A DNA stretch of 58,708 nucleotides, the filler included, from Nemertoderma westbladi (lineage: Eukaryota; Animalia; Xenacoelomorpha): NCBI GenBank assembly GCA_032718475.1. It is 3 parts of 3 records of this genome, joined end to end, with 100 filler letters (N's around TTAATTAATTAA, not from the genome) between each part and the next. Parts side by side here need not be neighbours in the genome. Positions count along the whole stretch, not along the records: positions 1 to 27,892 come from JAUCBJ010000455.1; 2 more parts are not named here. One strand, given 5' to 3'. The position numbers were made by a program, and so were the translations under genes. Shown here one piece after another: positions 2,588 through 56,324 of the stretch (positions within the stretch are counted from its first letter, which is position 1; each line of letters begins with the position of its first letter). Below the pieces are notes generated by a model. It was given only the letters and a program-made list of their open reading frames with translations, searched no databases and had not been told where the DNA came from.

Positions 2588-3516
2588 CTGCAAAATTTAA
2601 ATAATTATTTCTTCTGACATTACAGTTATAATATTGACACATAATTTAACAATGCATTCAATAGGGTCTGTAACGTCCAACTATATAGAGAAGCACACGG
2701 AGAGAAACACACCGGGAGAAGTGCGACGCTGATTGGCTAGAGCAGTTGTTGTAGCTACCGAAACTGGTATTTTTGGAAGAATTTAAAGGTTCGGCTGTTT
2801 GGTACCGGTATACTGGTATGTCTTCTTCTGTTGTAGCTACTGGTACTGGTATTTTGGCAAGAATTGAATGCAGGAATGGTTTGGTACCGGTAGACTGGGA
2901 TGTATATGGTGGCCCATTAAGGCCAAAGATAAATTTACGTTTGTTCTATGACAAATTTAATAAAACAATAACTAAATGCTGAAATATTTTATGTTAATTA
3001 AATATTTATAAAAAAATGTGGCCTCATTGGGCCATAACATGGCCCGGTGAGGCCAAAATAAAAATGTAATATTTTTATTATTAAAATGTTTCTTCCACGT
3101 GGCCCATGAGTGCCATTCCCGTAGACTCTGATGTTACCATGGCCCATGGGTGCCTTGACAGACTGACAGAATAAAAATAGATTCAAAGTAGGCAGGTATA
3201 TTCCGGTACTTGGTACTAATGTATACTGTTACTGCTTTTGATCGGTTACGGTAACTATGGTAGGTCTTTCATTATTGCATTAGGCCTACTGCTGTACTGT
3301 GTATTACTAATTCTTATTTCAGATTATTGGTTAGGCAGTTAGGCCTATAGTATGTAGTACTGGTATAGCAATAGCAGTCAGTACCGGTATCGAAGTACAG
3401 AAGTAAGGTTAACTGTATAACGGCAGGCTCTGCAACTACCGGTAGAACTGACTCGAGTACCAGTAGACCTAATACGGGTTGCAGCTTGCAGGGTTGCGGT
3501 GGGAAATAATCTGATA

Positions 3517-4709
3517 ATGTGGCAATTAGATGTGAGATTAGAGTCACGACTTCGAGAACTGGTGAGGCACAACTATAAACGCGTTGAAGTGCTTCATTAC
3601 ATGGAAAGAGACTTTCCCAACTATATGTGGAGCCTGCGGACGTTTAGCAAGGAGGATACAGCACTTCGGAATAACGTATATTAATTATAACATAGACATT
3701 ACTGAGGTTATTAACGCTGTAAGTGAACTGAAGGAAACATTTAAAGATACTACTTTGGGATATAGGGCCATCAATCAGAAATTGCGTATGGAGCGCGATA
3801 TTTGTATACCACGTAACATTGTCCAACAAATAGTAGGAGCTGTTGATCCCGATGGGGCTGATGCTCGAAAACCTTCCGCAAAGAAAAAGAAGAGGAAATT
3901 AAACTTTCACAGCAATGGCCCTCTTTACACGCTTAGTTTCGATGGGCATGATAAACTTTGTGGTTATCAGAATAGTACTTTTCCCCTAGGTATTTACGGA
4001 TGTTTAGATACATTTTCGAGGAAAACCCTATTGTGTAGAGTTATTTATTCCAACTCCAATCCCCATGTTGTTGGGAATTTATATTATAAAAGCTACGAGA
4101 AATTAAGCGCCTTCCGGTTTTTGTCCGTTTCGACAGAGGTACGGAAACGGGAAAAGCTGCCATGTTACATGCAGCTTTATCATCTGAGTTAGGTATTTTC
4201 GACGATCCAACTGATGGCGTAATTTACGGCCCATCCACAAATAATAAAATTGAAAGATGGTGGAGAGAATTAACGGAGCGATTGGAGCCTGTTTTCAAGG
4301 TGCAACTGAATGATCTATTACGCAGAAACCTCTACGACCCCTCCGATAAACTGGATCGCTTTACCTTAGCATACGTGTACATACCAGTAATTCAATCGGA
4401 GTTGGATATATTTGTGGGACATTGGAATGACCATCGAATACGGAGCCAGAAGATTGACCAACCAACTGGAATACCGCAACATATGTTTGACTTTCCCAGT
4501 TTGTACGGAGGAAGGACTACGGACTCCAGTTGGATGACAGAGACTTAGATGAAGCCGCTGCTGCTCTCAATATCGATGTGTTAGAATCGTGGTTGCCCGA
4601 CGATTTATTGAAAGAATTCGACGAACTCTCCCCTAACTTGATCACAATCGAAACTGCGCAAGTCTCTTACTATAGGCTGCGCCTCGCAGTGCAGCAGGGT
4701 CGGCTCTGA
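3517..4709 (+). pseudogene. Integrase-like DDE transposase with three single-base frameshifts (~3645, ~4090, ~4518)
   Basis: Joined frames give an N-terminal HTH-like region (LRELVRHNYKRVEVLHYM..WSLRTLARRIQHFGI), LGYRAINQKLR, SFDGHDKL..GIYGCLDTFSRK, VRFDRGTET, GPSTNNKIERWWREL and WNDHRIRSQK; stop TGA at 4707-4709. Frameshifts may be sequencing errors. Confidence 0.85.
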
Positions 4710-5500
4710 ATTATTACTTATGCCCCTAAACTGATTCTATTGCGCTACCTATTATAATGAACACAGTATAATTAATGTTCTTATAAGGTACAATTAAGGC
4801 ACATTTTATGTGATGTCATTCTGTCATTGTATATTTCATCAAAATAACAATTGTGTAGTGATGTTGCATGCAAGTATAATTTTATGACAATCTGTGGGTC
4901 GATCTGCCAACACAAGGGGGGGGGGGGGGGGTGGGGGGGAGGGAGGGATGGTTGATCTGATGGCTGAATGCAGATTAATTACTCTCTAATAAATACCCCT
5001 TTTTCTAAAGGAGTATATACAAGTTTCCTCTGGGGTATACAGTTCTGGGCAGCTGGGAGGAGGGGGGCACTCGAAGTAAGTGAGGAAATAATTATTTATT
5101 ACATGGGGAAATAAATACTTTTCCACTTTGATGTTCTTTCAATAAATGTAATACAATTTAAGTAATTCCACCAAAAATATTTTATTGTACTTTTTTCACA
5201 GGGCAAAAATGTAAAATAAATGCAACCTATTGATTACTTCTTCCCCAAGGGAAAAAAGTGCAAAGATAAATTCTTTAATATAGAAATCAGAATCAACAAG
5301 CCTTTCTTCAAGTAGTATGTTATTGCACGACAGATATTAACATATTGAAAATTTCAATTAAAAATAGCACAGAATTTACAAAGGTTGGGATTATAAAACA
5401 CAATAACTTCTTACAATAACAGTATTGAATAGCGTTAATCCATACTTCAATACACAGTCCTGCAGTCGAATAGCGATAATCAATAGTTCAATAAACAGTA

Positions 5501-6835
5501 CTAGATCCAGCATCCATTGGTATCCATCTGTAATGAAACAGCTCTACAGTATTTATTGCAAGTATGCACCTCCTGGAACTTAGATATCGCCTCAATTGAT
5601 AGATTGCCAGAACAGAACCATGTTTCGCGATCCTTGGCCAGAAGATCCACCGAAGCCACTTCTGGATCTGAAAGCTTACCTCCGCATCCTTGAATATCCA
5701 ACACCATAAACTTTCTTCCTAGTTTAATAAAACTGAAGTGCGCCAACGCTTCCACCTTTGCAACGATATCCTGATCTTTCTCTTCAATATCTATGATACT
5801 TCCGTCATTATTTATATATTTGCAGAAATTTCCGGTAACAAATTCCTCCACTGTAATGGGATACTCGTCACCCTCTATAGTGCCATAGTATAATTTAATA
5901 TACTGCAAATCTTCACTACTTTCCAGAAGCTCATTATTATCGACAGCAGACTCACTGAGCTTTTTGTTAAACTGCACAGCCAAGTGCCCAGCAAGGGCAT
6001 GCATTTGCGCCTGTTTTCTCGTGTGTTGCTCGATAGTTAACCCAAGCGTGGATAATACTTCTCGCGTATTAGGCTTATACTTTTTAACTACCCACTTTTT
6101 AGAAGTTGTGCATTCCATGGCTAAATATGCATTTCTCGATCCTCCTTCGGCAAACGCTTCATCGGGCAGAGACACCTTTAATTCCGCACTCAAAATGTGC
6201 CACATGCTATCACCAATATTAAATTCTTCCAACTTAATTGTCTTTAGAGGCTCCGGTTTAACAAAGAGGCCAGCCTTTAGTAGCTGTGCTACAGAGATCG
6301 ATTTGGACGGATATGATGAGCTCAGATTTTTGGACTGGGGCAATCTGTGCATAGCTGAATCCGTTGACGCTGCCGCATTCCATTCAATGGCATTTTTACT
6401 TGTAACTGCGCTGGTAGAAACGTTTGGTGATTGTTGGAGTAGGCCAGCCGCGTTTATTCCAGAATCTCGACGTGGCACTTGGCCAAATTTCACAAGATAT
6501 TCCTTCCCCGACTGTATCCGTAGCTGCTCCATCTCTGTACACACGGGACCACGATCCGATGCAAGGACAAAACATGGAGTTTCTTGGAAAAATACCTCAC
6601 ATGCCTCAACTATGTTATCGATAGTAAGTTCACTCCAGCTCTTGAAAGGGACAAACTCACGCATTCCCATTCTCTCATATTTGTTAAAACGATTAGGTTC
6701 ATTCGACATTCTCTGAACATTAAGCCAGGTTGGACAATCAATGCTCGCTTTTTTACGTCGTTTATCTGACAGCTTCGCCTCAAAATCTTTAATGTTTTCG
6801 AAGCGTTTACGATTTGGATTTCCACTTCCAGCCAT
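5501..6835 (-). CDS. Alpha-kinase (eEF2K/TRPM/ALPK-type atypical protein kinase), 444 aa, intronless transposon cargo
   Basis: P-loop FAEGGSRNAY, catalytic Lys in WVVKKY, VEEFVTGNFCKYINNDG, Zn-ligand His in ALAHFSF, catalytic VLDIQG, LSDPEV, GNLS..AISKF and C-terminal HTCNKYC Zn motif. First ATG at 6835. Confidence 0.93.
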   Translation of the reverse strand: MAGSGNPNRKRFENIKDFEAKLSDKRRKKASIDCPTWLNVQRMSNEPNRFNKYERMGMREFVPFKSWSELTIDNIVEACEVFFQETPCFVLASDRGPVCTEMEQLRIQSGKEYLVKFGQVPRRDSGINAAGLLQQSPNVSTSAVTSKNAIEWNAAASTDSAMHRLPQSKNLSSSYPSKSISVAQLLKAGLFVKPEPLKTIKLEEFNIGDSMWHILSAELKVSLPDEAFAEGGSRNAYLAMECTTSKKWVVKKYKPNTREVLSTLGLTIEQHTRKQAQMHALAGHLAVQFNKKLSESAVDNNELLESSEDLQYIKLYYGTIEGDEYPITVEEFVTGNFCKYINNDGSIIDIEEKDQDIVAKVEALAHFSFIKLGRKFMVLDIQGCGGKLSDPEVASVDLLAKDRETWFCSGNLSIEAISKFQEVHTCNKYCRAVSLQMDTNGCWI

Positions 6836-8649
6836 AGCAGCCAACTACCGGTATCTGGATGTATGGTTATTATAACTTCAATACTGGTACTGCAATAAGC
6901 AGAATACAGGAATATAAAAGTGATGAAATAGAGAAATAGCTGAATAACCTACCACTGTACCTCAGTATGCAGTACTAGAACCGGTCAGGTCAAATAAGTA
7001 CTGAAGTAGGCCTATGCCTATATTCAATTATATATAGGCCTAAGTAGCGTAGGTAGTGAATACGTGTATCGGTACATATTGTTACTCTCAGTCTGTTGTG
7101 GCACCCATGGGCCATGGTAACATTTACGTCTATGGGAATGGCACTCATGGGCCACGTGGAAGAAAAAATTTTATTAACAAAAAATATTTTATTTTAATTT
7201 TGGCCGCACTGGGCCATGTTTTGGCCCAGTAAGGCCATATTTTTTTATTGTTTATGTATTATATTAAAATTTATTAGAGAACAAATCCTAAATTTCGCTT
7301 TGGCCTTAATGGGCCACCATAGATGTCTTCCGTCAGTCTGCTGGCGGCACCACTGTCACCTATCTGCCCATTATATCTGTAGGCAGTACAGCAATGGGCC
7401 TATATCATCGCAAGACGTTAAATAGAGAACATGACAATTGTTGCTTAATGCTTACAGTTCTGGTACTACATTTGTTAAATTTATGGACTTAGGTCTACTT
7501 CTTGACTCGGCTCTAACTACAATAGCCTACTGCAATAGATACCTTACTTGATAACTATAGTGACCAACTTAAAAAAAACTTAAATCTGTCATCTTTTTCC
7601 GCTTCGCGCAGCACGAAACATATTCATTGATTTTTTTTTCTGCATTTTACAGTTTTACATATTTTCAAACGTCTAAAAATGCAAAAGTATTTTACTAAAT
7701 TTTCGTCCAACATGAAAGGTATATAGACACCCTGACCTGTAGTTTTAATCATTAATGGTTAAATATCGTTTATTGTTTTGGTTTGAAAATGTAACCTGTT
7801 CCTTTCCCTCTATTGGTAACATTATTGTTTATTGTTTTGGTTAGAAAAGGCTACCTATCTGTAACCTGCTCCTTTCCCTCAATTGGTAACAATATTATTA
7901 ATATTATATAAGAAAAAATACTGCCACCGATGCTGAATCTTTTAATTATTTTCTCGAATTACACACTCTATTACACAGTCAAATAAGGATGTAATAGTAA
8001 TAGGCCCAAATTCCATTCTGAATCGCGATATAAGCGTGTACTAATCGTGTCAAAAAGCGTGTCACACTTCTCCCTAGGTGTGCTTCTTACCGAGTGCTTC
8101 TCTATATGGTTGGACGTTACAGACCCTTCTCCAATCTCCATGCATTGCTTATTTACAATGTGCTGCAGTATGTATACTATGGGCATAATGCCTACATAAT
8201 TCTGCTCAATACATCAACCTAATAATTGGTGACATTGAGTTGTAGGATTATAGAGATTATAAATAGTTTTTGAGAGTGTCGTAAATTTTGATCCCTCTTT
8301 GGCGTAAATTTTTGAAAAAAATGATCCTGGTCCTAAACTTGTTCCTTCACTTGTTCTCTTTATAATGCTTCATGTTACAAGTAAGTATGGTGTTTAAATA
8401 ACACAATTGTTCCAGAACTTGGCGTATGAATAAAAAAATAATTTATTAAACGTTTTTATAATCATAATGTTGTGCCATTTAAAGTATCATTAACATCAAC
8501 TACAGTTTTAACCAAAAGACAGGCGTCTAGTCAACCACACATCACTTGGAATGCCATTCGGTTACTAGCGTTTTAGGTTGATGCTATTTGAGAAACAGAC
8601 ACTCCCAGAGATCACAGTACTATATATTGTTTCACGATCATCGGATATA

Positions 8650-9462: not shown

Positions 9463-10346
9463 CTAAAACAACATATTATGTTGAGAATTTTCATAAGTGT
9501 TTTTCTTTTGCAACAGCAATACATCACAGGTTGTGTGTTGTATAAGGATATATATAAAATTAGTAACCCATATTAACTAAAACCCACAGTTCCTTAAAAC
9601 CTAGCCAAGCTAGCATTTTTGGCTAATCACTTTTCAAACTTTTCTCCTGGTAATTATCGGGGATCCCTGTCCATATTTTTCTTTAGTGTATTTTAGTATA
9701 ACTAGAACTCGTACGTTTGCCTGTTTACAATCGACCTTCAATTCTGTATAAATTTATTTCTTCTGTCGCTATCGGGATGTTTGTTTATACTTTATTTCAG
9801 ATGTACTTTCGTTTTGTTATATTTTGATGTCAAAAAATAAGTCAAATTCCGCTCTACTTGCATATGAATAGCTTTATTGTTGGACCGATAGAGAAACAGA
9901 CTATATTCCACTAAACATAAAACTGACGTCGGAAATGAAATCACCGACCACGGAAACCCCACTAATGACAATTTTCTTTAAAATAACATTTTTTTAAATT
10001 GTGTGTGTGGTACTGTACATTTTACAGTGCTATATATGTATAATAATAGTGTTTTATATATTAAGTAATATAATTTACTGGGGGTAAAGTAAGTCAATTT
10101 AATCTACCTACTTTCTTAAAATTACATAAGACAATTTTATTAATAATAAAAATTATAATATTATTAAATTATTACGTTTTTTTTCCTCCAAGGCACACAT
10201 CTCCCTTTCCCTCTCTTCTTTGCCTACTGCTTCTTTGCCTTCTTCCTCACATCCACACTAAAAATGAAAGGATCTCAATAAAATCTGTAATATAATATTA
10301 TGTTTTTTAGTGATATATATACGTATGCCTATCATTCTGTATTTCA

Positions 10347-11706
10347 ATATTTTAATGTTAAATTATTTATTATTCAATGATATTTTAATGTTAAATTATA
10401 TATTATTTAATGATATTTTTATGTTAAATTATTTATTATTTAATGATATTTTAATTTTAAATAATTTATTATTAAATGATATTTTAATGTTAAATAATTT
10501 ATTATTTAATGATATTTTAATGTTAAATAATTTATTATTTAATGATATTTTAATGTTAACTTATTTATTATTTAATGATATTTTAATGTTAAATTATTTA
10601 TTATTTAATGATATTTTAATGTTAAATTATTTATTATTTAATGATATTTTAATGTTAAATTATTTATTATTTAATGATATTTTAATGTTAAATTATTTAT
10701 TATTTGATGATATTTTAATGTTAAATAATTATTATTTAATGATATTTTAATGTTAAATTATTTATTATTTAATGATATTTTAATGTTAAATTATTTATTA
10801 TTTAATGATATTTTAATGTTAAATAATTATTATTTAATGATATTTTAATGTTAAATTATTTATTATTTAATGATATTTTAATGTTAAATTATTTATTATT
10901 TAATGATATTTTAATGTTAAATTATTTATTATTTAATGATATTTTAATGTTAAATTATTTATTATTTAATGATATTTTAATGTTAACTTATTTATTATTT
11001 AATGATATTTTAATGTTAAATTATTTATTATTTAATGATATTTTAATGTTAAATTATTTATTATTTATGATATTTTAATGTTAAATTATTTATTATTTAA
11101 TGATATTTTAATGTTAAATTATTTATTATTTAATGATATTTTAATGTTAAATAATTATTATTTAATGATATTTTAATGTTAAATAATTATTATTTGATGA
11201 TATTTTAATGTTAAATTATTTATTATTTAATGATATTTTAATGTTAAATTATTTATTATTTAATGATATTTTAATGTTAAATTATTTATTATTTAATTAT
11301 ATTTTAATGTTAAATTATTTATTATTTAATGATATTTTAATGTTAAATTATTTATTATTTAATGATATTTTAATGTTAAATTATTTATTATTTATGATAT
11401 TTTAATGTTAAATTATTTATTATTTAATGATATTTTAATGTTAAATTATTTATTATTTAATGATATTTTAATGTTAAATAATTATTATTTAATGATATTT
11501 TAATGTTAAATAATTATTATTTAATGATATTTTAATGTTAAATTATTTATTATTTAATGATATTTTAATGTTAAATTATTTATTATTTAATGATATTTTA
11601 ATGTTAAATTATTTATTATTTAATGATATTTTAATGTTAAATTATTTATTATTTAATGATATTTTAATGTTAAATTATTTATTATTTAATGATATTTTAA
11701 TGTTTT
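10347..11706. repeat. 33-bp AT-rich tandem repeat (~40 copies)
   Basis: Unit tattttaatgttaaattatttattatttaatga with occasional shorter variants. Confidence 0.97.
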
Positions 11707-25270: not shown

Positions 25271-27892
25271 GAAAAGTAGCACTAGATATTGTCTTGAACT
25301 CATCTAGTTCATCTCATACGATGAAAATCCTGATTTTATGAAGAATCATTTAGAAATTAAACTTTGCAGCATGCATTACGTTATCTGGCAGCTCTGCAAT
25401 GAGATGCTATGATGGCTTAACAATAAATTTTGTGCCACCATCATGTAATGTACAATTGGCTTGCTATAATGCAGCATGCATTACGAAAAATGTATGTCAG
25501 CTTGTCAATAAAATTGAATCTCCACAACTATCCCCCATGACATTCACGAGATTATCCGCATCTTGAAAATAGTCTCCGTTGCTATAGTTAAGGGTCTGTA
25601 AAAAATAATGAAATTTATGATGGAATTTTTCAGAATGACTACTCAACCAACTGCTTCAAAAAATCCAACTATGGTTTAGATCGGAATTTGTGGGCAAAAA
25701 TATATACATCGCTCAGTCTATTATGGGGGATGGTGTATATGATATATATTATATGGATTTTATATGATACAATTACAGGCGCTATCTGACTGATTGATAT
25801 TGCTTTTATTCTTAAATTGTCATTTTTTCGCTCGAATATACCCCAAAATCGGAAGAAAAAGTTTCACTTTTTTGCCTAGGGGAAAAAGTAATCAATAGAT
25901 ATTATATTGATTTTTATATTTTATATTGATTTTACTTTTTTCCCAGCGAAAAAAGTAAAGTAAAATATTTTTGGTGGAATATTTTAAATGTATTATTTAT
26001 TATATATTAAATGTATATCACATGTATTGAAAGAGCATCGACGTAGAAAATGTTTGAAAGTAATTTGAGCGAAATCCATTCACCCACTCAAAAGTTATTG
26101 CAACTTTAGTGCCTGCGCGGCGTACACCAAAACGGACCTCAATATCCAATATTGGTTTATGTAGTTAAGCGGCTCTCTAGTTACATAATAAATATTCGAG
26201 AACACTAAATTAGTTTAGCATTGAGTAAGCCAACATCGAGAGTTGAAGCATGTCCTACCATTGCCTACTATATACTATTGTTATTATTATTATGTTTTAT
26301 TATGTTGTTGTATTATTGTATATGTGTTGTTGTTATATTATTATGTTACTATTATTATACTATACTATATTGTATATATTAGGCCATGGTTGAAGAATAA
26401 AATAATTTGAATCGCAGTAACTATGGAAGCAATATAGTAAAATACTACAATTCAATTTATTTTGTAACACTATTGTACTATAGTATATCGCTATGTTTTA
26501 TTACAGAATTTAGCAACAAAAAGTACCAATTTAAAAATAAAATTACGTATTACATGGGAAAAAACGTGGAACAATTTTTTTTCAATTTTCTCTCGACCCT
26601 TTATTAACCTCGCTGATGCTGCACTCGGTAAATAAAATGCCTCGAGAATAATTAAAAAAAGTTCTACTTTTTTCCCATGTAATAAATAATTATTATTGTA
26701 TATTGGTTATGGACAGTATAATATGGTATCAAAGACTTCAGTTCAATCTCTAGAAAACGTATGTCATGTGACTTATAAAAGTCATAATAAAAGTCATTAA
26801 ATAGCAAAAAAGTAGGCTAGAGTTCCGTTTGTATTAACATTTTCAGTAAAAGTTTTTGATGCATTGCATTACAAATTTTAATACTAATAATGATGTATAT
26901 GAATGAGTACTTGATCTTGGCAGATCTAGCTCATGAATTTTATGGTAGCTAGTATTTTTTGAAAATTAAAAAATAATAAAAATGTTAAAAAAATTAATAA
27001 TGTTTTTGAGTGTTTTTATTAGATATTGGTGAATGTTCTAGAACCATAGTATATATTTTTATTGTATTGGATCTATTGTTTTTTTTACTAGCTAGTAGGC
27101 CGCCATAATTAATATTATTTTTAAGTGTCTTTTAGATATTGGTGAATGTTCTAAAACCGTAGTATATATTTTTTTTATGGTACTTAGTATTTTTTGAAAT
27201 TTTAAAAATACGATGATTTATTTTATTTTTGTTAATTGTAAGTGTTATAGAACATTACTTCAGAAAAATTAAAAAAATTTATGTTCTAGAACAAAAAATA
27301 TTTGTTCTCGAACATTTGTTAGAGGATCCAATTCGCTGCACTACCTAGTGGAAAATGGGGAAGGTGGCAATTAACCAATTATAGTTGTCTAGGAGACATT
27401 ACCAATATAATGTCACCTACAAACGCACTGGGCAATACACATTGCCAATTGGTTAGGGAGAAATGACAGGTTACAAGCCATCTCGGGGGGGGGGGGGGGG
27501 GGGGGGGTGTGAGAAAGAAAGCTTTAACATGCACACATAGATTATGGATTGCCAGAGGGAAGATTAGATTAGCCAATGCTGGGGCAGTTCCCATCTGATT
27601 AATGCGCATTCAATGGCCAGGCCAAACTGTAGGTATCAATATTCCATGTGTGTAATAATATAACCGTTGTCTTTATTACCTGTTGTTTAGTTGGCTTATA
27701 CGAGTGTGGAAGTAAGACGGTTTAAACCGTCGTCATTAACCGTGCTATTATTGTATACTGATTGTGCTATATTGTATTCTGACATCTTATTAATTGTATC
27801 GCTACATTGGCAATTCCAGAAGTGTTGTTCAAAGCGATCCCTTTAGATTTACAGACGGGGAAACTGATTAAACTCGACCGACTCTAGTCTCC

Positions 27893-31065: not shown

Positions 31066-31507
31066 TGTGGATCTTACCACTGAGTTCCAAAACGGTTCCG
31101 AGGATGGTTACGAGGTTGTTACTCGACGGAGACGCACCCGCCGATTTGGTGTAGGATCAGGAAGCTTTCCGAATAGCTCGCTAACGGTTGTACAGAGACC
31201 GAGAGTCCCTACTCGCATTTTCGCATCCCGGTTTGGACTCGCTACGACTTTGGATATGATCTCAAATTTTTTGCTTCAGGAGCATGAAATCTCAGTGGAC
31301 TCAATAATCGACAACCCTGATGTAAGTGAGTCTCGCACCTACAACTCGTTTATCATCACCTGCAGGTCGGAGGAGGATGTTCCTGAACTGCTAGACCCTG
31401 CAAGTTGGCCGGAGGGTACCTTGGTGAAGAAATATTTCTCACCTTCAGGTTCAACAGCGGGTCGCATCAATGCTACTGAAGTTCCGTCCCGAAATCCTGA
31501 TGAATAA
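31066..31507 (+). CDS. C-terminal part of LINE ORF1 (RRM-like)
   Basis: IFASRF..TTLDMISNFL..YNSFIITC..LLDPASWPEGTLVKKYF directly upstream of an APE-RT ORF2. Confidence 0.75.
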
Positions 31508-33019
31508 TATTCATAGCGAAGACCTTTAAGTTGTGTTCGTATAATTGCTCTGGTCTTAATAATAATCGCCTGGTAATTGACGACTTATGCAATACTCATG
31601 ATATTGTTTTCCTACAGGAAACGTGGCTCTATCAGCAAGACCTATTTAACCTAAATAATATACATAACGATTTTTTTGGACTGGGAATTTCCTCGGTTGA
31701 CCTATCCGATGGGCCCCGTGTTGGGCGGCCTCATGGGGGCCTTGCGGTTCTCTTTAGGAAAAAACTGTCTTCTTGCATTAAATTAATTAATACTAATAAT
31801 AACCGTATACTAGGATGTGTAATTAATGATAAATTACCTAATTCTACCATTTTTCTAAACATTTATTTTCCGTGTGACAGCTATGATAATGCTGACTTAT
31901 TTGACGACCTATTGGGCCAATGTGAAGCCATTGTTTCTGAATTCCCTAGTAGTCGTACTTGTATATTAGGGGATTTTAACGCTGACCCTGGTCGCAACTT
32001 TGGAGCTAAACTTAAAAGTTTCTGTGTAGACGCAGAGTTAACATTGGTAGACCTTGAGCTATTGCCTTGTAATTCTTTCAGTTTCATAAGTAACGTTCAT
32101 GATACTGTGTCTTGGCTTGACCATATTTTATCCTCTAAAGATTTTTATAGTAATATAGTAAGTGTTAACCTACTGTATAGTTTAGTGGGTGATGGCCATG
32201 TGCCACTATCCATCTCCTGTCAATTATATCGTACAATTGAATATGACTCAGTGCTTCCTGGTGCATCTGTACATAGGGCTAATTGGGCTAAGGCGACGCC
32301 TGAAAATCTCCGAAGTTATTCCAATAATGTAAACAATTTGCTATGTAACTTAGATCTCCCTGAGGAGGCTATTTATTGTTGTGATGTGCACTGTTGTAAC
32401 CGTGACCACAATGCCTCCCTCGTTAAATGCTACTCTAATGTTGTAAATGCTCTACAAAACGCGACCCGATCTAATATTCCCTCTAACAAAGCTGGAGTGC
32501 ATAAAAACCCTCCTATTCCAGGTTGGAATGATCTTGTAAAAGAAAAACGCTCTGCCTCTCTAGAAGCCTTCCATATATGGCGAGAAAACGGTCGCCCGCG
32601 TTCCGGAATTCTCTGGGAAGTTAAAAGGAAATCCTCTGCCCAATATAAACTTGCTCTTAGGAATTGTAGAAAGCAAGAATCTACTTTACGGAATGATAAA
32701 CTCGCTAAGTCGTTTCTTGGTTCTTCTAAAGATTTTTGGCGCAATGTCAAGGCACATAATAATTCAAAATTACCGCGTGCTAGTAATGTTGGCGGGGCTC
32801 ACTCCGAAGCTGAGATCTCTGACTGTATCTGCGGATCCTATTGATATTTCATTTCTAAATAATACCTTTACCTCTTGGGATGGGTCCGATAGGCCGCATA
32901 TAAGTGCGGCGAATGTGACCGATGCAATTAAGGACCTTGAGCCTGGAAAGGCAGCTGGCCCCGACGGTATATGTCCCGAATTTCTGAAATTTGCAGGAAA
33001 TCGCCTCCCTGTTATATTA
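31500..33019 (+). mobile_element. LINE ORF2, 5' part (APE endonuclease, linker, RT start); clade unresolved
   Basis: SYNCSGL, DIVFLQETWL, GRPHGG, ILGDFNA, SWLDHIL, GDGHVPL, then GKAAGPDGICPEFLK; breaks after NRLPVIL. Confidence 0.92.
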
Positions 33020-36000
33020 TATGGCATACTTTTAGTATTTTTATTCGACATTTTATTTCCCCTTGATATTCTTCTGAATTTAGTCGCGAGATAAATGATT
33101 AAACACGCGAGAAAATAATTAATCTCGCGAGATAAATGATTAAACTCGCGAGAAAATAATTAATCTCGCGAGATAAATGATTAAACTCGCGAGATAAATG
33201 ATTAAACTCGCGAGAAAATAATTAATCTCGAGAGATAAATGATTAAACTCGCGAGAAAATAATTAATCTCGCGAGATAAATGATTAAACTCGCGAGAAAA
33301 TAATTAATCTCGCGAGATAAATGATTAAACTCGCGAGAAAATAATTAATCTCGCGAGATAAATTATTAAACTCGCGAGAAAATAATTAATCTCGCGAGAT
33401 AAATGATTAAACTCGCGAGAAAATAATTAATCTCGCGAGATAAATGATTAAACTCGCGAGATAAATGATTAAACTCGCGAGAAAATAATTAATCTCGAGA
33501 GATAAATGATTAAACTCGCGAGAAAATAATTAATCTCGCGAGATAAATGATTAAACTCGCGAGATAATGATTAAACTCGCGAGAAAATAATTAATCTCGA
33601 GAGATAAATGATTAAACTCGCGAGATAAATGATTAAACTCGCGAGAAAATAATTAATCTCGCGAGATAAATGATTAAACTCGCGAGATAAATGATTAAAC
33701 TCGCGAGAAAATAATTAATCTCGAGAGATAAATGATTAAACTCGCGAGAAAATAATTAATCTCGCGAGATAAATGATTAAACTCGCGAGATAAATGATTA
33801 AACTCGCGAGAAAATAATTAATCTCGCGAGATAAATGATTAAACTCGCGAGATAAATGATTAAACTCGCGAGAAAATAATTAATCTCGAGAGATAAATGA
33901 TTAAACTCGCGAGAAAATAATTAATCTCGCGAGATAAATTATTAAACTCGCGAGAAAATAATTAATCTCGCGAGATAAATGATTAAACTCGCGAGAAAAT
34001 AATTAATCTCGCGAGATAAATGATTAAACTCGCGAGATAAATGATTAAACTCGCGAGAAAATAATTAATCTCGAGAGATAAATGATTAAACTCGCGAGAA
34101 AATAATTAATCTCGAGAGATAAATGATTAAACTCGCGAGATAAATGATTAAACTCGCGAGAAAATAATTAATCTCGCGAGATAAATGATTAAACTCGCGA
34201 GATAAATGATTAAACTCGCGAGAAAATAATTAATCTCGAGAGATAAATGATTAAACTCGCGAGAAAATAATTAATCTCGAGAGATAAATGATTAAACTCG
34301 CGAGATAAATGATTAAACTCGCGAGAAAATAATTAATCTCGAGAGATAAATGATTAAACTCGCGAGATAAATGATTAAACTCGCGAGAAAATAATTAATC
34401 TCGCGAGATAAATGATTAAACTCGCGAGATAAATGATTAAACTCGCGAGAAAATAATTAATCTCGAGAGATAAATGATTAAACTCGCGAGAAAATAATTA
34501 ATCTCGCGAGATAAATGATTAAACTCGCGAGATAAATGATTAAACTCGCGAGAAAATAATTAATCTCGCGAGATAAATGATTAAACTCGCGAGATAAATG
34601 ATTAAACTCGCGAGAAAATAATTAATCTCGAGAGATAAATGATTAAACTCGCGAGAAAATAATTAATCTCGCGAGATAAATTATTAAACTCGCGAGAAAA
34701 TAATTAATCTCGCGAGATAAATGATTAAACTCGCGAGAAAATAATTAATCTCGCGAGATAAATGATTAAACTCGCGAGATAAATTATTAAACTCGCGAGA
34801 AAATAATTAATCTCGAGAGATAAATGATTAAACTCGCGAGAAAATAATTAATCTCGAGAGATAAATGATTAAACTCGCGAGATAAATGATTAAACTCGCG
34901 AGAAAATAATTAATCTCGAGAGATAAATGATTAAACTCGCGAGATAAATGATTAAACTCGCGAGAAAATAATTAATCTCGAGAGATAAATGATTAAACTC
35001 GCGAGATAAATGATTAAACTCGCGAGAAAATAATTAATCTCGAGAGATAAATGATTAAACTCGCGAGATAAATGATTAAACTCGCGAGAAAATAATTAAT
35101 CTCGAGAGATAAATGATTAAACTCGCGAGAAAATAATTAATCTCGCGAGATAAATGATTAAACTCGCGAGATAAATGATTAAACTCGCGAGAAAATAATT
35201 AATCTCGCGAGATAAATGATTAAACTCGCGAGATAAATGATTAAACTCGCGAGAAAATAATTAATCTCGAGAGATAAATGATTAAACTCGCGAGAAAATA
35301 ATTAATCTCGCGAGATAAATTATTAAACTCGCGAGAAAATAATTAATCTCGCGAGATAAATGATTAAACTCGCGAGAAAATAATTAATCTCGCGAGATAA
35401 ATGATTAAACTCGCGAGATAAATGATTAAACTCGCGAGAAAATAATTAATCTCGAGAGATAAATGATTAAACTCGCGAGAAAATAATTAATCTCGAGAGA
35501 TAAATGATTAAACTCGCGAGATAAATGATTAAACTCGCGAGAAAATAATTAATCTCGAGAGATAAATGATTAAACTCGCGAGATAAATGATTAAACTCGC
35601 GAGAAAATAATTAATCTCGAGAGATAAATGATTAAACTCGCGAGATAAATGATTAAACTCGCGAGAAAATAATTAATCTCGAGAGATAAATGATTAAACT
35701 CGCGAGATAAATGATTAAACTCGCGAGAAAATAATTAATCTCGAGAGATAAATGATTAAACTCGCGAGAAAATAATTAATCTCGCGAGATAAATGATTAA
35801 ACTCGCGAGATAAATGATTAAACTCGCGAGAAAATAATTAATCTCGCGAGATAAATGATTAAACTCGCGAGATAAATGATTAAACTCGCGAGAAAATAAT
35901 TAATCTCGAGAGATAAATGATTAAACTCGCGAGAAAATAATTAATCTCGCGAGATAAATTATTAAACTCGCGAGAAAATAATTAATCTCGCGAGATAAAT

Positions 36001-36626: not shown

Positions 36627-38867
36627 TCAGATAGGGCCTGAATCAAAGGCCTTGAAGAAGTCAACAAAGATGACAGCCAGATGCCTGTCTTTTTGTTTCG
36701 ATAACTCTTCAATTATCCTTCTAAGTGCCAAAATGGGCTCCATGGTCCCACGACCTTTACGGAACCCATTCTGATTTCCACGTAGCAGTCTCTCAATGGG
36801 ATCCCTGATGCGATTTAATAGAATTCTATTGTATAGTTTTGCAGCAATCGAGATCAATGAGATTCCCCGAAAAGAACCATAGAGTGTTAGGTTGCCCTTC
36901 TTGGGAACTGGCACCAACTTATTTGTTTTCATTTCTTGTGGGACTCTTGTTGTTCGGTACATGTCTACTATGATGGGATAAATGAGCTTTAAACACTCAG
37001 GTATTTTAAAGACCTCAGGGGGAACACCATCTACTCCACTGGCACGATTGGTCTTAATGCTCTTTGCAGCAGCCTTCACTTCTGCAAAGGAGATATCGCC
37101 AATGGGAATATCTGGGAGTACAGACTCAGACACTTTTACTTCTATAAAGTTATCAGGCAATACCCTGTCATTATTGAGGAGCTTTTCAAAGTGGGCTTTC
37201 CAACCATTGAGGCGATCGGCTGGTGATTCAGCCTTAACCTTGGTGGTTGGTTGGCTTTTCCGCCCAGTAAGCAGATTGATCGATTTCCATGCTTGGGATG
37301 ATTGCCTGCTGTCGTCAGCATCATTGATGGCATCAACCTGTTGGTTTATTAGCTCCTGTAGATTAACAGAGTACTGCCTGTTCAGGGACCTAGATGCAGC
37401 TTTTACTGCATTCTTGGCCGCTGTAGTCTGTTTGAGTCGGGACTCTTTCTGCGCCTTATGAAGGTCATTTCGGCACTTCTGAATTTTGTTGTCAGTCCAG
37501 GGGGCCCTTTTCCTGTTTTGAGGGTATACAGGAACTGTTTCTGCAGCTGCTAACTTAACTGCTTCTGTAAAGGCAGTATAGCTCTCACAGTGATCTGCCG
37601 CCTCAGAGGCAAGAGCCTCATACCTGTTGCTCAGCTGTAGTGTGAAGCTGGATCTCACACTTGGCTGTTGCAACAGAGAGGACCAGTCATGCCGTGGCAA
37701 GGCAGATTTCGTTGTTCTGCTAGCACGCAGACTAAGTCTTACCTTGGCCACAATAAGGCGGTGATCACTGGAGAAGGGTCGAAGTGTAAATGCATTACAG
37801 TCTTGTATAGAGCTCCTGTATTTCCTACGAAACAGAATATGGTCTATCTGGGACTTGTGACCACTGGGTCCACTATGAGTCCATAGCTTTCCAGTTCGCT
37901 TCTTGAACTGGGATCCAGCCGAAAACAATCCATTTCCAGAGATAAAATCCTGAAGTTGGACAGAATTTCGGTTAACACTATTGCTATAGACCCAGGGCGA
38001 TGTAGGTGATTGATGCAGACTTGCATTAAAGTCTCCCAGGAATGTTAAGAATGCATGCTGATCCACTCCATCAGTTGCTGCTTGTAGATTGTGGTAGAAA
38101 TTTTCCACCTCCTCTACAGGGGCAACACTAGTTGGAGAGTAGCACACAATCAGAACCACCTTAGGAAACTTCTTAGCCAGTCTTCCAGAACATGAGAAGT
38201 GGCAACGGATGATGCGGTTAGAGATTTGGTCTATTTTGTCCAATGCTGCATGTGCAGTTGGATTCATCAATAGATCAATTCCACCATTGCCACTATCATC
38301 TGCTGACGCGAGGGCGAGTCGCCAACCGCCCCCCATGTCCTTAATCAGAACCTCATCAGTCTGTCCAGTCTGCATTCGGTGCTCTTGAACACCCACTGCG
38401 CTAAGAGAAAGCTTATCTGCCAAGGCAGTCAGCTCACCTTGTCGCATTGGGGACCCGAGTGTTAGGGTGTTTACTGAGGCTAGTCTAGTGACTTGCCTCA
38501 GATTCACCAATGGCTTTGTTGGTCGGGGTGGAACATGAGAGTAGCCTCCAACTCCTGAATCCCTCTCCCCATCACAATCTGGCCTCCCTGGTGACCCAGG
38601 GTTTGGGCCAGAAAGGTCATCAGGAAAGGGACTCAAAGAATTGTTGGCTGCTCTCTCTCCAGTAGGGGGTGAGACAGGCAGCCGGTCAGGAGTTAACTGA
38701 CGCCTGTGAGGCCGATTGTGTCCGGTAATTCCACTGGCCTCTAGTGGCCGGACCTCCGCATTGCTAATGTAATCCATAGTGGGGGTTGGGGGGTGCTTTT
38801 TTGCCGAGTCAGCTCTCGGGGCAAATACCACACCCTGGTTTGCCATTCCACAGGGTGGGTGTCGCAA
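36627..38867 (-). CDS. RTE-like LINE ORF (APE endonuclease + first half of RT), 3'-truncated
   Basis: ASVNTLTL, VGVQEHR, CYSPT, LGDFNA, SQIDHIL, SDHRLI, PKKGNL..FRGISL, QNGFRKGR, VIFVDFFKAFDS then abrupt end; 5'-UTR probably extends to ~39270. Confidence 0.92.
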   Translation of the reverse strand: MRHPPCGMANQGVVFAPRADSAKKHPPTPTMDYISNAEVRPLEASGITGHNRPHRRQLTPDRLPVSPPTGERAANNSLSPFPDDLSGPNPGSPGRPDCDGERDSGVGGYSHVPPRPTKPLVNLRQVTRLASVNTLTLGSPMRQGELTALADKLSLSAVGVQEHRMQTGQTDEVLIKDMGGGWRLALASADDSGNGGIDLLMNPTAHAALDKIDQISNRIIRCHFSCSGRLAKKFPKVVLIVCYSPTSVAPVEEVENFYHNLQAATDGVDQHAFLTFLGDFNASLHQSPTSPWVYSNSVNRNSVQLQDFISGNGLFSAGSQFKKRTGKLWTHSGPSGHKSQIDHILFRRKYRSSIQDCNAFTLRPFSSDHRLIVAKVRLSLRASRTTKSALPRHDWSSLLQQPSVRSSFTLQLSNRYEALASEAADHCESYTAFTEAVKLAAAETVPVYPQNRKRAPWTDNKIQKCRNDLHKAQKESRLKQTTAAKNAVKAASRSLNRQYSVNLQELINQQVDAINDADDSRQSSQAWKSINLLTGRKSQPTTKVKAESPADRLNGWKAHFEKLLNNDRVLPDNFIEVKVSESVLPDIPIGDISFAEVKAAAKSIKTNRASGVDGVPPEVFKIPECLKLIYPIIVDMYRTTRVPQEMKTNKLVPVPKKGNLTLYGSFRGISLISIAAKLYNRILLNRIRDPIERLLRGNQNGFRKGRGTMEPILALRRIIEELSKQKDRHLAVIFVDFFKAFDSGPI

Positions 38868-39287
38868 TGGAGTCAGATATGAGGCCCATCACCCATATCT
38901 ACTCTGGCGTACATGACCCACCATTGGCTGTTGCAGCTCATCTGCTGGGTCATGCCCTGTACCCTTGCTGCCAGGTGCAGGTCGCAGTGAAGTGCCTTCA
39001 GAGTGGACATGAGAACACTCTACTCCTAACCAGCCATTGGTAGATCACCATCTGCCTGGTCAGGCCATATACCCCTGCAGCCAAGTATATGGGTCCTTAA
39101 TCCAGGACCAAGGGCGTCCTTATCCCAGAACGAAGGGGGTCCTAGTTACAGGACCAGATTTGCCCTAGTAAGAGGGTCTATGCAGCTACAGGTGGCACCT
39201 CCTTTATGCTGCATGGAGGTGGCAAGTTTTCTTGATCAATGACCTAGAATACCTGACCTGACAACAACTTTTTTTCTGGTACAAAAT

Positions 39288-40583
39288 TTTCTGGTATACC
39301 AACCAGCTTATTTCAGTATCTTGGGGCTCGTCTCAAAGTAAATGGTTCACAGTCGGCAATGGCGTTCGTCAGGGAAGTTTGATTTCCCCGATTTTGTTCA
39401 ATATCTATCTCGATGAACTGAGTCAGCGTCTTAACAGTTCTAAAGTGGGCTGTATAGTATCGAAATTCCTGATTAATCACCTTTCATACGCTGATGACCT
39501 TTGTCTCATTTCTCCTAGTATCTACGGTCTCCGTGGCCTCCTCCGCATCTGCGAGAATTATGGACTGCAGTTCGACATCTCCTTTAATCCGACGAAGTCG
39601 AAGTGTATGTATTTCTCCCCAACTAAATTCGGCCGCATGGGTGATGTATATTTGAACGGAAAGATTCTAGAATGTGTTAAAGAATATACTTATTTGGGAC
39701 ACATAATATCCTGTGACTTATCCGACGAACCGGATATGACGCGCACCAAGCGATCTCTTTATTGTAGAGGAAACCAGCTCTCCCGTATGTTTTCGAAGTG
39801 CAGTTTACCTATAAAGACTCTTCTCTTTAAGGCTTATTGCTATTCGCTATATTGTGCATCCGTATGGTCGACTTTCCGTGTAGAGTGTCTGCGGACCGTT
39901 AAGGTGGCGTACAACTCTGCATTCAGACATCTATTTGGGTATAGGCGTTGCGACGACGATGACACAATATTTGTCTGCCACCGTGTTAACAACTTCAAAG
40001 CTGTCAGCCGGGTACTGGCATTCTCGTTGCGTAATCGCGTCGCAATTTCCTGCAATCCAATCCTTGTAGGTTGTGCAAACTTAGGTTACTCATCTCTCAC
40101 TGATCGATGGGATGTGCTGCTTCTGTAATGCTCACCCCCCACTTCATGGCTTGCCCCCACATTATCGCGACCTTCTCATATTTCAAATCCTTGCAAATAT
40201 TATATAATATGAATTAATTCAATGTATATCTTATTATTTTTTTTTTGAATACATCACACCTGAGCGACCGGTACTCAATTTTAATATTTAATATTTTGAA
40301 TTCAGTAATGGGAATTGCTATTCTTTCGGTATTGGTTGGGCTGGGCAGTGCCTGAGTGTATCTTTTTTTTGTTTTTTTTTGTATAATATTGTGCTTTCTA
40401 ATTGAAAATGCGGTACCTTGGATATCGATTTAATTTAGTATTCTACAGTCGGGGTCTCAAATATTCAATGTATGCTTGTGCATTTAGGTATTAATTGTGC
40501 AATGCTGTTAAATTTGGTAGAAATAATCTGTACAGTATGTTTTATGGGCTCTGCCCGATGAATAAACAAAGAAAGAAAGAAAA
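39288..40583 (+). mobile_element. LINE ORF2, 3' part (RT to stop at 40128) and 3'-UTR; continuation of 31500-33019
   Basis: FWYTNQ..GNGVRQGSLISPILFNIYLD, HLSYADD, YTYLGH; 3' end AATAAA followed by (GAAA)n at 40561-40583. Confidence 0.92.
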
Positions 40584-54600: not shown

Positions 54601-54866
54601 ACAAAACTCACCATACCCACACCCTCATCCAGTTGCATAACCAATAATTCATAGAGTATGTGTGCTGTTGATTTGTTTACATTATAGATATACCAATCCC
54701 TTTATGTACAATATGTAGAAAACTACAACTAACTGTCCCAATATTTATTTTACAATATAATTTATAGCAGAAATATAATAAACTCATTTATTGTGTTCAA
54801 AGATATATAATACTAAGCATTTGGTGCTGTAATTCACAAATTCGTGCTAAATTATTGTAGGGCACC

Positions 54867-56324
54867 ATGGATATCAACACTACAGAGGAAGACAGAGATG
54901 TTGATACCGATTATGGGCTCCCGAACGAAGCACAGCCTCTTCTGGAGGTATCATCCAGGAGTTACGTATCAAGGAGTACACGGAGCGGAAGAAATAGACC
55001 GCAGATGCGTCGAACGGGCACTTTTCTGTCGTTGAGTACGGTCTACCGAAGACCCGAATCGGGTGAACCCAAACTCACCACCATGGATGCCTTCTTAAAC
55101 ACAACCAACATCGTGCAGGGAATGTTTATGATCAGCTTACCCTACTGCATTTATCTGGGAGGTTACGTAGCACTGGTTATCATCGTTGTGAGCGCGGCTG
55201 TAACCTGTTACACAGGCCGCCTGCTGGGTTCCTGCCTCTACGACACCTTCCCGGATGGGTCACGAATACGTGCCAGGGACACCTACGAAGCTATTGCCTA
55301 CGAGGTTTGGCATAGCAACGTAAGCGCGACCACAGTGCGACTGGCGCAGTTTATAGAAGGTTTTATGGCGTGCGTCCTGTATCTCATTCTCAGCGGAGGT
55401 CTCCTCACTAAAGCCTTCCCAGGGTTAGACAATGCTGTCGGACTAGGCGTCCACACATGGACCATGATATCAATAGCTCCACTTGTGTTCTGTATATTTC
55501 TTAAGGACTATAAGCTGGTAGCTAAGACCAGTTTATGGTGCGCTGTGGCCAGTGCCATCGTCAATGTCCTCATTCTGGGCTACTGCTTCGTCAATGCGCC
55601 TTACTGGCAGTTCAGCGCCGTTACTCCTTACGGTAAGTCTTACGAAACACTCCCTGTCGCTATCGGCCTCATCATTGTCAGCTACGCAGGTCATATGATA
55701 TTTGCGCCCATGGAAGGAGCAATGGCCGACAGGAGTAAATACAACAAGGCTTTGAATTGGGCATTTGGAGTTGGAGGAGTATCGAAGGCCCTGTTTGCTT
55801 GGATCTGTTTCATAACCTTTGCCGAAAATACTGATGAAGTCATCTCAAATAACTTTGGAAATCGAATGGTTGAAAATAAGTACAAATTTAGCGTTGTCGT
55901 TAAAGTCGATTCTGTCGTATCCTCTAGTATTCCTTGCAGGAGTTGAACTTTTAGAAAACTGGGCATCCTTGCTAAGAATGCTGATGAATTGCTTGACCAC
56001 CATCTCTGACCCCAGAAGGAAGTTTAAAGTTGGGGGCTGTGGCTATCAGGCTATTTTATGTTATAATCGGGTTGCTAATGGCCTTGTTCCTTCCATACTT
56101 TGCTATCCTCTCCGGTTTAGTTGGAAATATTACGGGAATGTTGATATCCTTTATATTCCCACCGCTGTTTAATCTTCGACTCAACTGGGGTAGACTTCCA
56201 TGGTGGCAGAAACTCGTTAGACATGTCTATTATAGTAATCGGTTTCATTACCAGTGGCTTTGGGGTCTATTACTCAGCTTTAGCTCTCGTGCGAGCCATA
56301 TCAGACGACCTGAGTAAGAACTGA
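54867..56324 (+). CDS. Vesicular inhibitory amino acid transporter-like (SLC32/VGAT family), intronless, three apparent frameshifts
   Basis: NTTNIVQGMFMISLPY, CYTGRLLGSCLY, RIRARDTY, IGLIIVSY, KSILSYPLVFLAGVELLE, PYFAILSGLVGNITG parallel VGAT motifs; frameshifts near 55855, ~55960-56030 and ~56215; stop TGA at 56322-56324. Confidence 0.85.

Follow-up and report, generated by a model that had tools for sequence, protein, structure and literature searches.

The window examined here is a stretch of 58,708 nt from Nemertoderma westbladi (GCA_032718475.1), composed of three joined parts, of which positions 1-27,892 are taken from JAUCBJ010000455.1. At 2905-7321 it harbors a 4417-bp transposable element that is almost certainly an IS3EU copy carrying a dedicated alpha-kinase, whose gene lies tail-to-tail with that of the transposase. 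Judged from related loci, this kinase is a regular second gene of the element family and not chance cargo. Pairing of a transposase with an alpha-kinase is already known for fungal IS3EU elements (PMC12730594), while the present analysis adds the animal-wide linkage of the two genes, a predicted ubiquitin-like domain at the kinase N-terminus, a weakly predicted binding of the transposase and the likely mis-annotation of many relatives. The overall reading, that of a non-autonomous animal IS3EU/GingerRoot copy whose kinase would be an accessory to its own transposition, with predicted docking on the transposase, is considered evenly poised between right and wrong.

Ends of the element and its two genes

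IS3EU/GingerRoot elements are defined by TA..TA ends and 6-bp target-site duplications (TSDs) (PMC10045372). The window element begins with TATGG at 2905 and finishes with CCATA at 7321, in agreement with the general form TAYGG..CCRTA, and is flanked by the 6-bp TSD copies GATGTA (2899-2904) and GATGTC (7322-7327), which match at 5 of 6 positions and differ in the final base. Its terminal inverted repeats (TIRs) lie at 2905-3180 on the + strand (276 bp, beginning TATGGTGGCC) and at 7076-7321 on the - strand (246 bp, ending GGCCACCATA), both far above the 30 bp expected of the superfamily, and are imperfect, with 208 of 243 aligned bases identical (86%). Each contains, at corresponding positions, five imperfect 16-bp palindromes of the type TGGCC..GGCCA, starting in the left TIR at 2910, 3019, 3040, 3100 and 3140; these are likely candidates for transposase-binding sites.

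The ends are fixed by an empty-site join from 2898 to 7322, seen in contigs of three runs (X1, X2 and X3, from two samples), at which 4423 bases are skipped (4417 plus 6) and a single TSD copy, GATGTC, is retained. Contigs of X2, X3 and X5 start at 2905 with different flanks, and the family has therefore inserted elsewhere too; contig depths are not taken as copy numbers. Roughly 5 of 30 bases in the flank behind the empty site depart from the window, so the empty site may be a paralog of a host repeat and is not claimed as an orthologous allele. Taken by itself the window site would also fit a TSD of 5 bp, but the other copies start at 2905 and a derivative at another locus (L079, below) has a perfect 6-bp TSD. 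A first-pass annotation, made from the sequence of the window, had proposed an IS3EU-like element with these boundaries, TIRs of about 250 bp and a TSD matching at five of six positions, and had pointed to an empty site and to copies with other flanks as traces to be expected of it. All of this is borne out, the IS3EU identity by the termini, the TSD length, a transposase of profile PF24764 and the opposed gene pair.

The kinase gene occupies 5501-6835 on the - strand as an intact, intronless open reading frame (ORF) of 444 amino acids, convergent with the transposase gene, and encodes a basic N-terminal helix, a predicted ubiquitin-like domain, a disordered linker and an alpha-kinase domain (5546-6151, residues 229-430). 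PF02816 (E 8.9e-33, 114 bits, cutoff 21.3) is the sole Pfam family above cutoff in this ORF, which lacks a fused transmembrane channel of the TRPM6/7 type. Alpha-kinases are defined by a catalytic Lys, two Asp and a His/His/Cys/Cys zinc site (PMC2827801), and the protein carries EGGSRNAY (from 230), K251, H366, D380-I-Q-G, D390-P and H424-x-C426-x3-C430. Among 29 aligned kinase sequences, K251, E330, H366, D380, Q382 and D390 are invariant, while the zinc-site residues H424, C426 and C430 are conserved in all 27 gap-free rows. The glycine-rich GxGxxG loop towards the C-terminus is reduced to SGNL (409-412), aligned with PANLG of TRPM7, with G410 and N411 conserved in at least 90%. An AlphaFold model finds the TRPM7 kinase (1ia9) as its best Foldseek match (E 3.9e-16, 19% identity) and also matches the kinase structures of eEF2K, MHCK-A and ALPK1, at 16-21% identity throughout; 44 PDB chains match at E of at most 0.001, and all those listed are alpha-kinases. 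By profile, fold and catalytic and zinc residues the protein belongs to the alpha-kinase family, its kinase activity being a prediction. Differences among contigs (14, from 40 of 249 rows; 6 synonymous, 8 non-synonymous) were too few and preselected, and were left unused. Ahead of the kinase domain, at residues 177-195 (about 6251-6307, - strand), a helix with the motif PKSxS(I/V)xxLLxxGKL is conserved in nearly all relatives, placed like the dimerisation segment of TRPM7 (PMC2827801).

On the + strand at 3517-4709 lies a transposase pseudogene of the IS3EU/GingerRoot DDE type, intronless and of about 397 codons. Compared with intact relatives from two metagenome loci (L038 and L040), it is broken into four pieces by frameshifts near 3645, 4090 and 4515. 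Its two large pieces share 44-61% identity with these relatives, and the piece at 4162-4545 matches PF24764 rva_4 (E 2.7e-14), while no solved structural relative was matched by the transposase profile. Retained are D (3941), D (4132) and a likely catalytic E (4258), the last of which is assigned on the integrase motif. Both Asp columns are invariant across 66 sequences, and the first Asp, near residue 142 in the window and 151 in L038, lies within the range of 100-300 typical of IS3EU/GingerRoot. Difference-free contigs from X1, X2 and X3 cross the first break, and X2 has them for the third as well; these two are therefore not assembly errors. None is listed for the second. Because of the three frameshifts the window copy has no open transposase frame and is non-autonomous, and could move only with a transposase from another copy, yet could still make the kinase. 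The two convergent, intronless genes of the first-pass annotation thus stand, as do the intact 444-residue kinase, its P-loop, Lys, DIQG, DP and zinc motifs all present, and the assignment of the two proteins by profile (PF02816 and PF24764), but the transposase is not open, its three frameshifts having been overlooked.

The insertion point of the element probably lies inside a different repeat, about 1 kb long, of which a very high-copy repeat near 7760-7900 also forms part. An outer inverted repeat surrounds the element at 2663-2727 and 8061-8127 (67 bp, 88%), and the left flank contains an 82-bp tandem duplication (2747-2821 / 2829-2903). Between the two genes, the spacer holds a piece, about 120 bp long, of another repeat (5141-5263), 73% identical to 25862-26001, and a great many contigs stack on the bin containing it. 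A 595-bp contig of run X5 matches 2901-3086 and 5458-5570, a short derivative linking the left TIR with the kinase gene's 3' end.

Linkage, joint inheritance and selection

Relatives of the kinase are numerous. A word-indexed search retrieved 34, at 32-42% identity, most of 400-460 amino acids and alignable over the N-terminus, and a profile run against 1.84 billion representatives yielded 462 clusters (50% identity) at E of at most 1e-30. Relatives with a named source belong to Paramuricea, Acropora, Porites, Clytia, Ciona and Saccoglossus and are mostly annotated as TRPM6-like or myosin heavy chain kinase-like; those so labelled in corals, Clytia, Ciona and Saccoglossus are likely transposon genes. 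Pattern scans of limited reach detected no kinase relatives in the viral contigs and prokaryote genomes scanned and, likewise, no transposase relatives in viral contigs.

Linkage was counted outward from kinases. A metagenome scan confirmed a relative of the kinase at 141 loci, and the best 80 of these were searched by tblastn with the window transposase, its breaks read through as X. A transposase match was present in 46 of the 80, always on the opposite strand, and 45 of these lie downstream, that is, tail-to-tail. Many metagenome contigs are short; where 2.5 kb or more is available downstream, 29 of 33 loci have the transposase, and where 3 kb or more is available all 17 do. When the loci are grouped into 38 clusters at 80% DNA identity, a transposase is found in 21, including 12 of the 14 clusters with a long enough member. 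The one head-to-head arrangement (L002) was rejected as a counter-example, being a rearranged or misassembled copy of L038, because both halves are more than 99.7% identical to that locus, itself tail-to-tail.

In 309 kb the exact terminal 10-mer TATGGTGGCC is present 25 times, where shuffling gives a mean of 0.36, and it sits beside different flanks in members of one family. At L079, positions 295-2363, a complete 2.07-kb derivative has 316-bp TIRs, a perfect 6-bp TSD and a frameshifted kinase, without a transposase. The transposases of L003, L005, L010, L015, L062 and others are split at a single position, after PSTSNQ, in an intron-like manner, a split absent from those of the window, L038, L040 and L041; some kinases of relatives are split within the linker. 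A Ciona kinase relative (P0036) and a Ciona transposase relative (P0269) give a hint of linkage in a tunicate.

The histories of the two genes were compared in 18 elements, the window plus 17 representatives kept from the 34 of 46 transposase-bearing loci with enough cover. Distances between kinases correlate with those between transposases (Spearman 0.745, Mantel p 1e-4), and the deepest split is common to both trees, with support of 0.99 and 0.92, the window being grouped with L031, L038, L040 and L041. These comparisons support a long joint inheritance of the two genes, without strict congruence of the trees. The ratio of non-synonymous to synonymous change (dN/dS, Nei-Gojobori) in the kinase domain stays below 1 in each of the 58 pairs and does not exceed 0.26 in 43 of them, the 15 higher values mostly involving copies with stops or breaks, while that of the transposase is 0.20-0.32 in 8 pairs; in neither case are the pairs independent. 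By these ratios the kinase family is under purifying selection. The first-pass annotation had suggested a dedicated mobile kinase, to be recognised by tail-to-tail linkage elsewhere and by agreement of the trees. Linkage in 45 of the best 80 loci, the correlated distances, purifying selection and several insertion flanks speak in its favour, and the kinase is neither a single-copy gene outside TIRs nor missing from the family's other copies.

A predicted docking domain and the role of the kinase

Residues 35-123 or thereabouts of the kinase protein (6467-6733, - strand) form a predicted beta-grasp domain of the ubiquitin-like/PB1/CIDE type, modelled by AlphaFold at pLDDT 82 with an order of strands and helix that fits this fold. 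In the structure comparison VIA the best match is the ubiquitin-like (UBL) domain of Rad23 (Z 6.6, root-mean-square deviation 3.3, 73 residues aligned), and none of those listed reaches the tool's mark of 8, so the ubiquitin-like fold remains a prediction. Among the 50 rows listed, 49 are ubiquitin, UBL, PB1, CIDE-N, RA or FERM domains, which we take together as beta-grasp folds, while Foldseek gives a best E of 0.02. Pfam and PDB sequence searches returned nothing significant for this domain, and the ESM Atlas no usable match. Ubiquitin-like domains are general docking modules.

A complex predicted between the transposase of L038 and the N-terminal domain of L002 scores ipSAE 0.45, against 0.01 for the best of three controls, with at least 58% of contacts shared between runs and a partner pLDDT of at least 73, and is rated as weak support. 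It was made without alignments, on proteins of one related family. Of 78 solved complexes 51 come up to the score mark, as do 2 of 108 mismatches and 7 of 44 blind neighbour pairs; scores of at most 0.60 include only 5 of the 78 solved complexes, against all 4 passing mismatches (of 180). Binding of the kinase N-terminal domain to the transposase is a lead, not a result.

On this basis a tentative mechanism of docking and regulation can be drawn, judged to fall a little short of an even chance. An intact family member would express the two genes from promoters close to its ends; the transposase would bind the repeated TIR palindromes, cut at the TA ends and insert with a 6-bp stagger, in a cut-and-paste manner. 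The kinase would be recruited to the transposase through its N-terminal domain, and might then phosphorylate either the transposase itself or host proteins present at the complex, and so govern the time or the place of transposition. A stronger version, in which the kinase is a required second subunit of transposition in animal and fungal IS3EU alike, docked via the ubiquitin-like domain and switching the transposase by phosphorylation, is possible yet doubtful. If true, IS3EU would be a transposon encoding its own regulatory kinase, and the hundreds of coral, tunicate and hemichordate genes called TRPM6-like would belong to transposons and not to host signalling.

The linkage and selection data are also in line with a kinase that acts in trans as an anti-silencing factor on host chromatin or small-RNA silencing proteins, its predicted ubiquitin-like domain binding the host target instead of the transposase, an account considered unlikely though not remote. 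The docking role general to such domains would suit it, and a basic stretch, KRRKK, near the kinase N-terminus could be a nuclear signal. Fungal IS3EU elements also encode TET/JBP dioxygenases, proposed to aid escape from silencing (PMC12730594). However, the co-divergence of kinase and transposase suits a partner within the element at least as well as one in the host, and the weak pass of the complex prediction favours the transposase as that partner. More improbable is a cargo that helps or manipulates the host cell, whether by ALPK1-like immunity, eEF2K-like translation control or a selfish, toxin-like action, with the window copy perhaps kept for its kinase. The fold is indeed common to eEF2K, TRPM7, ALPK1 and MHCK, the window kinase is intact beside three transposase breaks, and kinases without a transposase occur at L079 and at four further loci (L054, L055, L064 and L072). 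Against this, identity to host kinases is only 17-21% with none of their regulatory domains, the kinase of the kinase-only L079 is frameshifted, stops occur in the kinases of many relatives, as they do when transposons decay in the ordinary way, and an empty site exists. Selection preserving the kinase in the window copy itself is unsupported, as all three breaks would fall in the transposase by chance with p of about 0.10. Finally, GingerRoot elements capture fragments of host genes (PMC6839031), and the kinase might be a neutral passenger captured once in this way, but such an origin is largely refuted and very improbable: the kinases make up a family of full-length proteins whose catalytic residues are invariant although identity is 32-42%, have dN/dS well under 1, hold a fixed position in 21 of 38 clusters, co-diverge with the transposase, and are reported from fungi in an identical arrangement (PMC12730594).

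The preferred reading, of a kinase serving the element's own transposition, has several points to contend with. The linkage counts start from kinase loci only; L054, L055, L064 and L072 have at least 2.5 kb downstream without a transposase match; and, of the 20 loci that allow the test, only 11 have the terminal motif upstream of the kinase. Congruence of the two trees is weak at fine scale, because only 3 of 15 splits are common to both (null mean 0.23, maximum 3 in 2000 shuffles). The predicted ubiquitin-like assignment rests on a Z under the tool's mark, and the complex score of 0.45 falls where the tool errs more often than not and was obtained on proteins of a related family, not the window copy. 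In the passages searched, no alpha-kinase encoded by the element is described for GingerRoot or Styx, both related to IS3EU, and the kinase may therefore be dispensable.

The finding matters in that the second gene of IS3EU, barely described so far, is in animals as well as fungi a conserved and selected kinase, for which the ubiquitin-like prediction and the weakly predicted transposase binding offer a direct way to ask why a transposon keeps a kinase. Host-gene labels on so large a family of element kinases can, in addition, inflate the claimed expansion of alpha-kinases in corals.

Elsewhere in the window, an AT-rich tandem array with a 33-bp unit occupies 10260-11700, ORFs at 31504-33094, 36627-38888 and 39262-40128 resemble, by eye, endonuclease/reverse-transcriptase fragments of non-LTR (long terminal repeat) retrotransposons, and an exon or gene of an amino-acid transporter lies at 54861-55946 on the + strand (PF01490, E 2.2e-36).

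Relation to known systems

The host alpha-kinases TRPM6/7, eEF2K, ALPK1 and Dictyostelium MHCK-A share with the element kinase the fold, the Lys, the two Asp and the C-terminal His/Cys zinc site, as far as the published descriptions go. The element kinase differs from them by its low identity (17-21%), by the absence of channel, calmodulin-binding, heptose-binding and WD40 parts, and by its predicted ubiquitin-like N-terminal domain.

IS3EU elements have been known since 2012 from zebrafish, Hydra, beetle, acorn worm and fungus, with their structure and function called largely unexplored (PMC11934779), and are described as encoding two proteins (PMC8232023, PMC10853768). In its TA..TA ends, 6-bp TSD, two proteins and integrase-like DDE core 100-300 residues from the N-terminus the window element resembles the superfamily as described from zebrafish, Hydra, beetle, acorn worm and coral (PMC10045372, PMC6839031, PMC8232023, PMC11934779). 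The pertinent passages of these four papers leave the second protein of animal IS3EU unnamed, and the word kinase occurs in none of the four. In length, the TIRs of the window element (246-276 bp) exceed the 100-150 bp given for clubmoss GingerRoot.

The closest parallel is found in fungi, where TET+ IS3EU families are described with oppositely oriented transposase and alpha-kinase genes, TAYGG..CCRTA ends and 6-bp TSDs (Kojima 2025, PMC12730594). The kinase is mentioned there in passing, the relevant passages giving neither domain structure nor function. The novelty that the first-pass annotation had suggested for the pairing is weakened by this description from fungi; for animals no statement of it was found in published papers, a search that did not cover Repbase or the Kojima 2019 review. 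With IS3EU-7_PSt, IS3EU-3_PCor and IS3EU-6_PSt, to which it is likened by description, the window element shares the TAYGG..CCRTA ends, the 6-bp TSD, TIRs of more than 30 bp and the oppositely oriented gene pair, while it differs in its animal host, its 4.4-kb length and the lack of a TET/JBP gene in between. A conserved second gene that travels with the transposase, often in convergent orientation, is also familiar from PIF/Harbinger, with its Myb/SANT protein, and from CACTA, with TnpA. The second proteins of those elements bind DNA, whereas that of the element described here is a protein kinase.

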